A stretch of 64,000 nt of DNA from Eledone cirrhosa (lineage: Eukaryota): positions 16,306,001-16,370,000 of the forward strand of contig OZ024741.1 in the NCBI GenBank assembly GCA_964016885.1, given 5' to 3'. Shown here piece after piece: positions 9,661-55,804 of the stretch (positions are counted from its first letter, which is position 1; the number at the start of each line of letters is the position of its first letter). Below the pieces are notes generated by a model. The model saw only the letters and a list, made by a program, of their open reading frames with translations. It ran no database searches and was not told where the DNA came from. Both the position numbers and the translations under genes were made by a program.

Positions 9661-10488
9661 AAATATAAATTCAGCGAGAATCGTATTTCGGCTGGTAGAA
9701 AAAGCGAAACGAAACGCAAAATCGTAGAAATACTGGCAAGCGCTCCAATAGTTAAGAAAACTAGAGCTAAACAATATGTTAAAACGCTATACAAACTGAA
9801 AAGTAGTCAGGAAGGCATTAACCACCTAAGCCAAAAAACAAATCAAGCTAAACAGGTCAAACAAAATAAATGATAAAGACAGACCTGGTCCCAAGTGGAA
9901 TTGATGGTAAAATCCAAATGCAGGGTTTCTATGACACCTAAATCAATAATACTGTCTGCTTAAAACTATAACCTTTCAGCATAAAGATCGAACAAGGAAT
10001 ATCACGTTATCAACAGGTATTTTGCTCTGTAACCAACTTTGTGAGTGACGCAGAACTTTGTAAAAGCACATGTGTAAGTCACAAGGGGAAATTCCCCAGA
10101 TTTTGGCAAATGAATTCAGTATGTGTATATCATACAAAAAATTTCATAGATAGCACAAATCGAATAAGCACTCAACCGGGTAGTTTTTAAAATAAACTTA
10201 AGCAATAGAATTGTCAATAGAATTATTAACAGGTTAATTGTAAGACTCGGGATATTAATACAAATATAAATTCAGCGAGAATCGTATTTCGGCTGGTAGA
10301 AAAAGCGAAACGAAACGCAAAATCGTAGAAATGCTGGCAAGCGCTCCAATAGTTAAGAAAACTAGAGCTAAACAATATGTTAAAACGCCATACAAACTGA
10401 AAAAATGGTCAAGAAGGCATTAACCACCTAAGCCAAAAAACAAATCAAGCTAAACAGGTCAAACAAAATAAATGATAAAGACAGACCT
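9661..10488 (-). mobile_element. PLE pLTR-like module: ~227-bp direct repeats (9661-9887, 10262-10488) within (TA)n
   Basis: Near-identical repeats with 601-bp period; TTGAGTGCT tail motif on - strand at 10167-10175; no clear HHR core found. Confidence 0.5.
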
Positions 10489-10502
10489 ATATATATATAT
10501 AT

Positions 10503-12057
10503 ATATTAAGACAGGGGGGAAGAAAAAATGGCTTCACTTGTGCTTTCAACAAATTTATTTTCTTCACAAAATCCAAAAAGAATTTTTCTTAAAAAAAATT
10601 ATTTTATAAATTAAGTTGTTGGTTGTTGGTTAGGTCTTAGGAGTTCTTGGTTAACGTAGGGGTATTGTTTCGTTTTTAGAAAGACTTTTCACGCTGAGGT
10701 GGGCTTGTCAAACTGATGTGTATGTGGTGTGTTGTTCTATATATAGGGATTTAACATGTCTGTGGTGTGGTGGGGGTTTCTTTTCTCCCCCTTTAATAAG
10801 TGCATGGGTGTAGGTGTGTTGAAAAAGTGTTCATAGCAGTAATGAGTTGAGACGGTGAGTAGGGTTGGGTGGGGAGAAATGTAGCAAGTGCGGCCTGCCC
10901 CGGTCATTCTCGAAAAATTCCTTTATTCAGGGAAAAAAGCTTTTAGAATTGCTTTTGTGTTGAGAATGGTCACAGGCAAATCGCACCTGTCAAGCTTGTG
11001 AATAATTATTTTTTTCTTTTTTTCCCTGAAGAATTTTTCTACGTCCATTTTTCTGCGTGTGTATGTGTGTGTGTGTGTGTATGTGTGCGTGTATGTGTAT
11101 ATATGTATATTTAGTTATGTATCTTTATGTGTGTATATGTATGTATATGTATGTATGTATATGTATGTATATATGTATATATATATATATATATGTGTGT
11201 GTGTATATATATTTATATGTGTGTATATGTGTGTGTATGTGTATATGTATGTATATATATATATATGTATGTATGTATGTATGTATATATATATATATAC
11301 CCATGTGGAGGTATGAGTACATATTCGTGTGTGTACGTATGTGTATGTGTGTTTTTATATGTGTCTCTATATGTTTTTGTGTATGTATGTGGATGTATTT
11401 GTACATGGGTGTGTGATTGATGGTGTGTGCCTATATATTCCTACATATGCCCGTGTGTGTATGTACGTATATACGCACATATGTGTGTGTTGAACAAAGG
11501 ACTAACTTTGGGATGGACGTAGAAAAATTCTTCAGGGAAAAAAAAAAAAAAAGAATTATTCACAAACTTGACAGGTGCGATTTGCCTGTGACCATTCTCA
11601 ACACAAAAGCAATTCTAAAAGCTTTTTCCCCTGAATAAAGGAATTTTTCGAGAATGACCGGGGCAGGCCGCACTTGCTACATTTCTCCCCACCCAACCCT
11701 ACTCACCGTCTCAACTCATTACTGCTATGAACACTTTTTCAACACACCTACACCCATGCACTTATTAAAGGGGGAGAAAAGAAACCCCCACCACACCACA
11801 GACATGTTAAATCCCTATATATAGAACAACACACCACATACACATCAGTTTGACAAGCGCACCTCAGCGTGAAAGGTCTTTCTAAAAACGAAACAATACC
11901 TCCTACGTTAACCAAGAACTCCTAAGACCTAACCAACAACCAACAACTTAATTTATAAAATAATTTTTTTAAGAAAAATTCTTTTTGGATTTTGTGAAGA
12001 AAATAAATTTGTTGAAAGCACAAATGAAGCCATTTTTTCTTCCCCCCTGTCTTAATA
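10503..12057. repeat. ~545-bp inverted repeat pair (10503-11047 / 11513-12057), PLE pLTR-like
   Basis: Arms are near-exact reverse complements around a microsatellite spacer; degenerate HHR-like motif at 11846-11885. Confidence 0.85.
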
Positions 12058-12375
12058 TACCTAACTGTACCAAGGATTACACACATTTTCCAATATATAT
12101 ATATATATATATATATATATATATATATATATATATAATATATATGCACACATATGGTTATTTTTTCATCACGTGGCTTGAATTCTTTTCAGAATTCATT
12201 GACCTGCGCATGTATTGTTTTTTTGGCATTAGTCTCCTTCCTCCTATTTTCGAGACAGTGTGAGATTTTTTTTAGAACTGCTGGACTAACAACCTAGCAA
12301 CTCCCTCAAGCACTGATGGCGATTATCGCTAAATATTGATGTTGATTTGGTTATCAATATTAATATTATTGGGCA

Positions 12376-12498
12376 CCCACTGAAGAATTATATGAGTCCA
12401 CTTGAATAAGTATCTGTTGATCTTATACAAGCTTCTACATAAATTGGTATAATTTCACCCAACTTGTAGAAATCTTATAGTGAAACGAGTCGTCTGGG
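12376..12498 (+). ncRNA. Type I hammerhead ribozyme with long branched stem II
   Basis: CCCA-CTGAAGA-[ATTATA...TATAGT with two internal hairpins]-GAA-ACGAGTCGT-C^-TGGG; GUC triplet. Confidence 0.75.
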
Positions 12499-12867
12499 AA
12501 GAGATATATTTGATATGTCTCATATGAAATGATACAGCCAATTCTCCACACAATACAATATAGTTAGCACCCCGAACGTTTAATTAGGAATATACTCAGA
12601 TATTTCCTAATGTTTGTTGAGTGAGTTGGAATTTGGCCGGAGTATCGCTATTAGCTTTCTCCGATTATGTATTTATATATATATATATATATATATATAT
12701 ATGTACCCCTCAAATACATGTCTCCTTGTGGTTGGTTGGAGGATATACACGTCACCTGATGAGTGTCCAATAAGATCCGAAAAGCGATTAAAGATGTTTA
12801 TTATTTTTTTTCAATTTACAGGGAATTTATATAAATATATACTTATATAAATATATACTGTGTATAT

Positions 12868-52995: not shown

Positions 52996-54534
52996 TATCG
53001 CAGTGTATGGGTGAAAAATTGTAGGTCTCAATAATGGTTATTATTAATTCTAAGTTTAGTAGCCTGAGGTTATTCAACATGTGACCTTCAACATGTGACC
53101 TTCATTCTCAACATTGCTCTAGCTAAATTCTGCCCAACCAATTCACCCAAATACCTACTGAAAACACTTGGACTCTTCAAACCAATCTAGTGTTGGATTG
53201 TAAAAATCTATCTAACCCATACCAGTAAACAAACATAGAATGGTGATGATGTTCAGGGTGGGATTTAAACTTTGGGGGAGCGAGGGCCTCATACACAAAA
53301 AATTAGAATACACAGCAAATCCTCCATTTTTACATATCAAAATTAGCTTGGCACAAGTAATTGGAATTTATATAGACAAGTATTAAATTCAAAAATTCTA
53401 ACCATCTTAAAACTAAAAAGACCAGCTGAGGACACAAATAAATTTCTACGGCTGTCTCTAGTAGTCCACCCATTGCAGGGGGTTTGGAGCAGTTTCACAC
53501 TTTGCCTCCCATTAAATCTGGCCCTAATGATATTGATGACACACACAAGGAAACGAGACAATATTTAGAGATGTTAATGTCTTCTCCATCCAACCTTACT
53601 ATTAATGTAAAAAAATACTAACATTTTCTTTCAGATGAAGCATACCATACACAGGTGGGTTTTTTTTTCATTTATCATTCCACTGCCTCTGTATCATCTT
53701 TCATCCCAACAGATGACAACAACTGTCCATGAGTGAACCACTTGTTGTCATATGCCAAAGAAAGACACTGTCTAATTTTGAGGAATTTAGAGATATAATT
53801 AACTTTCTCATTATTAAGCTGGTGTTTAGAACGTAAAGGTTTTATATAAAATTATCATGGAATAAAAGAATTTTAGATAAATATATTTAAGTCTAAAGTG
53901 TATCTTAAGCCAGGAGCCTCATTTGGCCCGTACTTCTTCCAGTTTCGTGACGTGAAGCAACTGAGAATACAAGACTATTCCTGAACAGGACACCTGGCCG
54001 TCACAGAGTTAAAACCCCAGCTACTGCTGGTACTCATTTTCAGCTGAGTATACTGGAACAACATGAAATGAAGTGTTTTTCTCAAGAGCACAACGCGCAA
54101 CCCAGGACAGGAATCCAACACATGACATTATGATTGTAAGTCCAACAACCTTACCACCAGGCCATGTACCTCCACATAACATACTTGTAGAAATATAAAA
54201 TCTCTGTTGGAAAACAAAGTTTATTCTAAGAGAATGTTTCTAACAGAAGCCAATGGCAAGAAATTAGAGGGAGAGGCAACTGATTTAAATCAAACCTAGT
54301 ACATAGCTGGTACCTTCTTATTTTATCAACTTTGAAAGAATGAAATATAACTTTATCTTTCATTTTTTCAGAATTAACTTTAGTTAACCTTGGTGGGATT
54401 TAAACTAATAACATAAAGAACCATAACAAATACTGCAAGACATTTTGTCTGATTCTGCAAATCCACGTCCCTAAAAATAGTAAAAAATATTGCTTTCACT
54501 CACACATATATATATATATATATATTATATATAT

Positions 54535-55005
54535 GTTATATGATGCCTGTGTGAGATGTGCAATGCTGCATGGTAGTGAGACATGGGCAGCAACTGCAGA
54601 GGATATGCGATGGCTGGAGAGAAATGAAGCAAGCTTCGTTGGATGTGCAATGTCAATGTGCGTGAACGACCAAGCATAGATGTGTTGAGAGAGAAACTGG
54701 GTAAAAGAGGAATAAGTTGTGGTGTGCAGGAGAGAAGACTGAGATGGTATGGACATGTGATGCGCATGGAGGATGACCGATGGGTAAAGAAGTGCCAAGA
54801 AATCCCAGTAGAAGGAAGACACAGTAGAGGAAGACCACGAAAAACATGGGCGGAGGTGGTGAGAACAGACCTCAGATCGCTGAAACTCATGGAGGAGATG
54901 ACTAAGGACCATGACAAGTGGAGAGATGCTGTGCAGAATAGGACCCATCCTACCCTTGCAAGCAGAGAAAAGCGGATGTAAAATGATGATGATGATGATG
55001 ATGAT
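54535..55005 (+). mobile_element. RTE 3' fragment
   Basis: AMLHGSETW..RLRWYGHVMRM..RGRPRKTW; (GAT)n tail. Confidence 0.9.
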
Positions 55006-55647
55006 ATATATACATCCACACACACACATATATATACCCTCCCATACATCTCCCATGAGGACAGACTGAAGAATACATCTAGTGAAGCCTCCAGCCCACA
55101 CTGTAAAGTGGCCATGATGGCAACATGACAGAAAGCACCCAGTCCACACTATAGAGTGGTCATGTAGGTGTCATGACAAAAGCACCAAGCACTCACTGTA
55201 AATGAGATTGGCATTAAGAAGGGCATCCAGCTGTAGAAACCAAGCCAAAATCAGTTCTGAATGAGCATGACATGGTCACCTGACTTAGCATCGCTCACAA
55301 CAGGATAACTCATCTAACCCATGATAGCATGGAAAAGAGTGAACGTTAAATGGTGATGATGCTGATGATGATTTTATATATATATATATATAAACATAGG
55401 GTGGAGAGGACTTTTGAGTCCAGTAAGATAACCTCTCTATCTGCTGTCACAAATAATGCAACCAGTCCACACTGTAAAGTAGTTGGTGATAGGAAAGGCA
55501 TCCAGCTAGAAAAAAACTGCCAAAAATATGAACTTCATTCGTCATCATCATGTCCAACCCATGCAAGCGTGGAAAAACCAAGATGATGATGATACAAGGC
55601 TAAAACAGTGAATCTTGTTACTATGGAGTTTCGCCAACCCCTCAGTA

Positions 55648-55697
55648 TCTTGTCTGATGAGCCCGTGAGAAGCAGGTGAAACTCCAGAGTAACAAGA
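55648..55697 (+). ncRNA. Type I HHR preceded by an inverted copy of its 3' half (55611-55635)
   Basis: TCTTGT-CTGATGA-GCC..GGT-GAA-ACTC CA GAGT-A^-ACAAGA. Confidence 0.85.
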
Positions 55698-55804
55698 CTC
55701 ACTATTTAACCTTAATAAAATGAATATTTAAATTCTGCTTCGGTATTGAGTACTCTTTTCTCTCGGTTAGCTACCTACGAATCTATCTATCATACTCTGA
55801 ATCT

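Follow-up and report, generated by a model that had tools for sequence, protein, structure and literature searches.

The window analysed here is a 64,000-nt stretch of the Eledone cirrhosa genome (GenBank assembly GCA_964016885.1, contig OZ024741.1, positions 16,306,001 to 16,370,000, forward strand) and carries a series of repeat modules, many of which end in a microsatellite. An initial annotation had listed 14 nine-mers in these modules and proposed a shared motif, TTGAGYRC, about 45–80 nt before the 3′ end of otherwise unrelated hammerhead ribozyme units; all 14 were found at the given position and strand. Judging from their protein motifs, the modules are mostly ends of Penelope-like retrotransposons (PLEs) of the known Hydra clade and not unrelated, stand-alone ribozymes. 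The motif itself belongs to a hairpin that occurs twice in the element, as hp1 and hp2. The duplicated hairpin is a real feature that appears to be undescribed, and both insertion ends can be predicted from its position.

A GIY-YIG domain and a CxCx5C linker are encoded by the open reading frame (ORF) beside site 14568, and RWR and DKT motifs by the one upstream of site 31798. RW[RK], DKT and CxCx5C are hallmarks of the Hydra clade according to Craig et al. (2021, PMC8557442). A C-terminal GIY-YIG domain with CxCx5C, no CCHH, and CxxC and CxH beside the conserved E and N was seen in window family A, in more than 20 sampled endonuclease copies and in the full ORFs L199–L218; RWR with DKT or DKA occurs in window family I and in full ORFs. 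Full ORFs of 829–897 amino acids (aa) with the same motifs are present elsewhere in the genome. The clade assignment is made by motifs rather than by a phylogeny of the reverse transcriptase (RT). A link to Hydra ORFs was established for window families A, F, G and I but not for B/C, D, E, H, J, K and the module at 12617. A Pfam search of four proteins gave nothing at threshold, and 2705 related proteins were found among 7992 scored. The predicted model of a Hydra protein (predicted local distance difference test, pLDDT, 93.5) had its best fold match in telomerase RT (PDB 6zdq; E 4.6e-9, template modeling score ~0.38, 10% identity, high root-mean-square deviation); no PLE structure was among the listed fold matches.

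Predicted hammerhead cores were found by pattern in the pseudo-long terminal repeat (pseudo-LTR), and an Rfam HH9 match in L207 (E 0.0013) stayed below the gathering score. Most modules escaped a strict hammerhead descriptor, and the ends were used to define families instead. Some cores carry U3-A8 in place of C3-G8 (TTGAGAA, TTGATAA; window 14405–14435 and families F5, F7, F9 and F30), and hammerheads with a long stem II of ~95 and ~37 nt (window 12380–12500 and 29088–29135) are missed by standard patterns. Insertion into (TA)n was observed, and some ends abut CT, CA or CAT repeats. One very young Hydra family (e.g., G000:C1:183737167-183757391) has more than 100 listed copies of equal score, most with an 830-aa open frame and many in tandems with a 6–7 kb period.

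As a linear word, the motif fared poorly. Its similar distance to the microsatellite junction held for 11 of the 14 sites, at 45–82 nt: ten lie at a computed 45–78 nt, and the eleventh, 14568, has a pattern-match distance of 99 yet lies only 82 nt from the family A long end at 14651. The deviating sites are a read-through copy (29360), a copy that lacks a following microsatellite (55746) and a probable second hairpin (10167). Some of the sites are related: 17138 and 22232 belong to one family and 16505, 28654 and 29360 to another, so that the 14 sites represent 11 families. Only 8 of the 14 sites match TTGAGYRC, and its 8 matches in the window are at chance level (shuffle mean 6.1, maximum 15). 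We used an independent sample of 138 evenly spaced 10-kb stretches (1.38 Mb of the 3.0-Gb genome). Here, TTGAGYRC was found 40–99 nt before TA runs 31 times in sense and 4 times in antisense (1256 flanks), and this sense excess was gone once flanks were weighted by cluster. Counted per family at 40–85 nt, a modest enrichment remained (3 of 73 families in sense, 0 in antisense, shuffle 0.1), with corresponding values of 6, 3 and 1.5 for TTGAGY. TTGAG words were absent from the top 20 five-, six- and seven-mers at TA edges; TGAGT and AGCACA, which overlap the motif, were among the top words.

The motif turns out to be the 3′ strand of a hairpin with a bulge, RCUC-stem/loop-UU-GAGY: a complementary RCUC lies upstream of UUGAGY and is followed by an upper stem, leaving the UU as a bulge. 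A descriptor derived from the window modules was applied, via non-window copies, to 74 automatically defined end pairs, many of which are not PLE tails and several of whose families are also present in the window. It matched 20 of the 74 tails, compared to 2 reverse complements, 0 upstream sequences and, after shuffling, 1.5 on average (5 at most). The 20 include a duplicate entry of another family and family E in antisense. The distance from hairpin to long end was 44–125 nt in 19 of the 20 and 19 nt in the duplicate entry, which was also the only match among the 21 tails shorter than 62 nt. The descriptor captures the signal far better than the linear motif.

Base pairing is further indicated by covariation, for which anchors were picked blind to upper-stem pairing. 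The first upper pair is formed in 19 of 19 families (13 U-A, 3 C-G, 3 G-U; permutation mean 11.9, p = 5e-5) and the third, for which four pair types occur, in 16 of 19 (permutation mean 7.2, p = 5e-5), while the outer lower pair alternates between A-U (10) and G-C (8). In true register, 63 of 76 pairs are formed, compared to 21–35 in shifted registers. Subfamilies of family K show compensatory changes, and in the leaders described below the first upper pair is formed in 25 of 28 cases (p = 0.0004). Two other identities were considered and rejected: a telomerase P6.1-like UUGAG loop, as UU is a bulge and GAG is paired, and, by inspection, a splice site, as GAG is a poor acceptor and a donor-like GTGAGT occurs only at 12617. 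At gathering thresholds, Rfam returned three tRNAs over the window and nothing over the hairpins, and among 16 covariance-model matches with E ≤ 1 in six leader-bearing loci, none was judged to be the hairpin.

In every family, the 3′ end falls at two precise positions, and the sequence between them is the PLE tail (66–174 nt in this genome). In family A, the best 30 copies all end near query position 312, and the inverted partner arms in eight of these loci end at 146–157. For 11 families with a read-through reference, we collected 103 microsatellite-abutting ends, after setting aside 21 alignment ends without a microsatellite: 41 lie near hp1 and 62 near hp2, with long ends over-represented by the choice of queries and the hp2 arms of families A and D picked by eye. 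In total, 99 of the 103 are located 0–12 nt upstream of a hairpin and the other four 17–41 nt upstream. Restricted to random loci, 29 of 30 ends fell 0–12 nt before hp1 or hp2, compared to 3.1 expected under a uniform distribution. For family F30, 34 of 41 search rows (flanks not viewed) end at 209–212, and hp2 begins at 213. In other hosts, eight of ten copies at least 91% identical to the reference end 0–6 nt before a hairpin and two 13–15 nt before it, whereas the ends of more distant copies scatter. The short end thus lies 0–12 nt before hp1 and the long end 0–12 nt before hp2. The initial annotation had suggested a conserved cis signal for RT or endonuclease recognition, 3′-end definition or core promoter function. 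The link to 3′-end definition is supported, though for a structured element that occurs twice, with a fixed spacing to the 3′ end just upstream of it rather than to an end 45–80 nt downstream. The latter distance is a by-product, because it is set by the hp1–hp2 spacing, which is itself variable.

The second hairpin is revealed by copies that read through past the long end; in the window, the copy at 29360 reads through to a second hairpin at 29424. The order hammerhead, hp1, hp2, ATG was seen in the leaders of several families, some of them relatives of window families A, F and I, and the read-through relatives of family F (L206–L208) contain hp2 and an ORF of 894–897 aa. Across 100 ORF starts from 16 families, two anchors were present in 11 of the 13 families that offer 200 nt or more of upstream sequence, these being mostly from other hosts (controls: 0 in coding sequence, 1 in the reverse complement, 0.11 in shuffles). 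In a metagenome set of 62 loci from other hosts (28–43% identity, 29 clusters), both hairpins were identified in 10 of 16 loci with a recognisable ORF start; the remaining six comprise three loci cut short by a contig end or truncation, one with a single hairpin, one diverged locus and one false match. The leader consensus is GCUC-Y..R-UU-GAGC-AC, with an opening pair that is usually U-A in hp1 (9/14) and C-G in hp2 (12/14) and an hp1–hp2 spacing of about 57 to 162 nt. In one subfamily of family I (L238, L248), hp2 has an AT-rich loop of more than 100 nt; in its siblings the loop is short and contains a TA run.

Published elements were inspected by eye. Hydra-1_Ajap has two hairpins ahead of the ATG, and one hairpin each is present close to the 3′ end of Hydra-2_Amil and Hydra-2_Ajap. 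That of Hydra-1_Crog is divergent and that of Hydra-1_Amil doubtful; in the sixth consensus, Hydra-1_Obim, none was visible. Five motif words searched in the supplement of Craig et al. (20 of 22 places viewed) match at hairpins in the Hydra files and without an obvious hairpin in the Naiad and Chlamys files. No description of the hairpin was found in the PLE and retrozyme literature searched.

In fold-back insertions, two arms are joined head-to-head. In the 13 hairpin families, 75 fold-backs combine a long with a short end and two combine two short ends; none combines two long ends. We consider it fairly probable (about 0.6) that each hairpin loads the element's own RT so that copying starts a few bases upstream, and that both sites prime one insertion. 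This reading draws on the PLE Poseidon PAc of Anolis carolinensis, whose RT starts at two internal sites that match the tail ends, with both target strands cut and extended and RNA 3′ of the starts required (Frangieh et al. 2024, PMC11167929). The Hydra hairpins are placed just 3′ of each end, the equivalent position. In such a process, the hairpins would act as RNA and the endonuclease would cut both strands of the TA repeat. In this twin priming, one target end would start cDNA at the hp1 site and the other end would do so at the hp2 site. The two cDNAs would then be joined head-to-head, often at a palindrome, since cDNAs of the same sense have only self-complementary stretches at which to anneal. 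The tail would then be the interval from hp1 to hp2, so that solo ends show hp1 in mid-tail and no hp2; lying 3′ of both ends, hp2 is part of neither arm. A hairpin pair marking the RT starts would explain both the one-sided tail and the head-to-head structure. For the wider proposal, i.e., a clade-wide RNA hairpin pair that serves as two dedicated RT loading sites, with programmed twin priming giving rise to the tail of PLEs and to their head-to-head structure, we see roughly even odds.

Several observations weigh against RT loading by the hairpins. Long ends are paired with short ones in short-tailed families that lack the hairpin as well (21 of 21), and pairing can thus do without it. The binding and priming biochemistry comes from another clade, Poseidon, and the Hydra observations are positions of genomic ends. 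Frangieh et al. saw the same start site on both strands (PMC11167929). Regarding the structure, two of the 19 covariation rows are not true tails, and the permutation p-values overstate independence, as the families are related. G-U versus A-C counts give the RNA strand no advantage. In hp2, the upper stem often amounts to one pair (second pair 7/14, p = 0.25), folding energies are weak, with the antisense folding better for two of six window hairpins, and the hairpin at 55746 did not fold as drawn.

Other explanations were weighed against the same data. The hairpins could guide a nuclease, with the GIY-YIG domain or a host enzyme binding them as single-stranded DNA or RNA and cutting a few bases upstream, so that the ends are cut sites. 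The D. virilis endonuclease is reported to require the tail for recognition (PMC11167929), Craig et al. attribute the tail to endonuclease resolution (PMC8557442), and the wobble pairs that might reveal an RNA strand show no consistent strand preference (G-U versus A-C 7 to 3 in tails and 3 to 6 in leaders). Covariation and loops of ~3 to more than 100 nt argue against a duplex DNA site, however, the end offsets vary by 0–12 nt between families, and the tail ends of Poseidon are RT starts (PMC11167929); on balance, we regard a nuclease guide as unlikely, though worth keeping in mind. Less probable still is a process with one start and one stop, in which RT has its only start before hp2, a palindrome lets the cDNA snap back and the second strand halts before a protein-bound hp1. 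Self-priming at palindromes has been proposed earlier (PMC3846280), long–short pairs would arise automatically, and the 48 of 75 fold-backs that are near-perfect palindromes, with arms truncated at the same point, are also explained by snap-back synthesis, which is a further point against twin priming. Snap-back predicts extra sequence on the long-end arm, whereas in asymmetric fold-backs with a detected inverted repeat it was located on the short-end arm in nine, on the long-end arm in three and unresolved in three (in 12 further asymmetric fold-backs no inverted repeat was detected); in window family A, the ORF likewise sits on the short-end arm.

The position of both hairpins in the 5′ leader, with hp2 a few tens of bases before the ATG, would also suit a promoter, splicing or translation signal that the ends adjoin for another reason. 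Penelope has a promoter and an intron in this region, and UUGAGCAC is conserved as sequence past the paired part. Such a signal gives no account of two ends that each track one hairpin over spacings of ~57–162 nt, nor of a hairpin kept in the non-coding tandem family K, and the core-promoter option appears disfavoured by the base-pair covariation and by loops from a few to more than 100 nt; we consider a leader function of this kind improbable. Decayed AT-rich repeats met by a loose pattern could produce the hairpins by chance, in line with the chance-level count of the linear motif in the window and with a loose descriptor that gave 887 matches in the 1.38 Mb, similar to its controls. The positional tests on tails (20/74), ends (99/103 and 29/30) and leaders (11/13) contradict this, as does the recurrence of the hairpin in other hosts and published Hydra elements, leaving chance with next to no weight. 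RT loading by the two hairpins is the reading that we prefer.

The features of the window are collected in Table 1.

Table 1. Hairpins and associated PLE features of the window (hp1, first hairpin; hp2, second hairpin; "added", absent from the initial annotation).
Feature	Position	Strand	Remark
Family A fold-back insertion	13301..14651		ORF arm on − to short end 13301; inverted arm on + to long end 14651; tail 156 nt
GIY-YIG endonuclease segment	13805..14200	−	CxCx5C linker, CxxC before conserved E
Family A predicted hammerhead core (U3-A8 variant), sense arm	13361..13391	−	Read from sequence
Family A predicted hammerhead core, inverted arm	14405..14435	+	
hp1 family A (site 14568)	14502..14575	+	First upper pair broken here, intact in other copies
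hp1 family J (site 15069)	15070..15110	−	Short upper stem
hp1 family E (site 16019)	16020..16044	−	
hp1 family D (site 16505)	16506..16532	−	G-C outer pair
hp1 family B/C (site 17138)	17120..17145	+	
hp1 family B/C (site 22232)	22233..22258	−	
hp1 family D (site 28654)	28655..28681	−	
hp1 family D, read-through copy (site 29360)	29341..29367	+	
hp2 family D	29424..29465	+	3 nt past long end; one lower pair mutated; chosen by eye
Decayed hp2-like element ahead of family I ORF ATG	29915..29939	+	
Broken N-terminal/RT fragment of Hydra ORF, family I	29967..30964	+	RWR and DKT
hp1 family I (site 31798)	31748..31805	+	Long loop
hp1 family F (site 43889)	43873..43896	+	
hp1 family G (site 44192)	44193..44214	−	One-base bulge
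Second family G hp1	48381..48402	−	Local duplication
hp1 family H (site 55746)	55732..55753	+	UUCG cap, two G-U pairs
Variant hp1 (site 12617)	12594..12624	+	Upper stem deviates from descriptor
Probable hp2, non-coding tandem family K (site 10167)	10168..10253	−	Starts ~8 nt past long end; 5′ arm imperfect
hp1 family K	10341..10368	−	Added
hp1 family K, second tandem unit	9740..9767	−	Added
hp1 with compensatory GUUC/GAAC lower stem	43476..43501	+	Added
hp1 family F2	18555..18575	−	Mutated in window copy; added

Family K (window 9660–10500, minus strand; L063) consists of a non-coding tandem unit of ~600 nt with hp1 and a probable hp2, in which no hammerhead was identified, and is a candidate non-autonomous PLE derivative. 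At L040:4150-4445, a non-Hydra PLE end is joined straight to a family K tail just before hp1, probably by nested insertion. A second class of tails, 33–68 nt long and without the hairpin, also combines long with short ends (end clusters 15, 50, 53, 64, 81, 122, 127 and 165). It is represented in the window at 15530–15950 and 31850–32500, some members share a small GCT..AGC stem, and cluster 15 was traced to a non-Hydra endonuclease (L134, L058). Furthermore, the region 40165–47272 contains three tRNA genes, two of them inside a ~4.75 kb duplication, and another duplication of ~4.2 kb repeats the family G module. Satellite arrays occupy 1–3530 and 22784–24157 (52/82-nt and 53-nt units and a long CAC-type array). 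Two RT copies resembling long interspersed nuclear elements (LINEs), identified by eye at 19190–21920 (plus strand) and 24200–27080 (minus strand), are unrelated to the hairpin finding.

The hairpin pair addresses how PLEs choose internal start sites and where the one-sided tail and the inverted copy come from. One in vitro study has linked the tail to two RT starts and named no signal, and the hairpin makes this question directly testable. Its position predicts both ends in this genome, in other hosts and in published coral and sea-cucumber elements, which gives a rule for locating element boundaries in a large clade, and it offers a model of RNA engagement by the mobile elements most closely related to telomerase. 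If RT loading holds true, a hairpin of 20–30 nt would represent a portable signal through which a telomerase-related RT is directed to an internal start.

Compared to the Hydra clade of Craig et al. (PMC8557442), the elements described here share RW[RK], DKT, CxCx5C, and CxxC/CxH around the conserved E and N, as well as the pseudo-LTR hammerhead, TA-repeat targets, inverted 5′-truncated copies and the one-sided tail. The leader hairpin, though visible in their consensus files, is not described in the sections of that article considered here, and the tails are longer than the 30–40 bp that it gives for PLEs generally. In Poseidon PAc, too, the tail runs between two internal positions located downstream of the hammerhead, and the sequence lying 3′ of these is required. 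The element belongs to another clade, its starts are found in an AC-rich stem loop inside the ORF, and the parts of PMC11167929 considered report no duplicated hairpin. Telomerase RT with its three-way-junction RNA (6zdq) would resemble the Hydra system in that an RT is positioned by an RNA element outside the copied stretch, a likeness that, at the low identity and high deviation given above, concerns the protein fold and not the hairpin versus telomerase RNA. In LINE-1 twin priming, both target ends prime cDNA on the element RNA, resulting in an inversion. The second site is opportunistic there and the arms do not overlap, whereas Hydra elements have two fixed sites and overlapping arms. Non-LTR retrozymes (PMC7229834; bioRxiv 10.64898/2026.07.22.740005), in whose main texts, as far as considered, neither a hairpin nor a stem-loop is mentioned, share type I hammerheads in PLE-derived repeats, and family K is likewise a non-coding tandem. 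They differ in that most modules described here trace to protein-coding families, with ORFs in families A, F, G and I.

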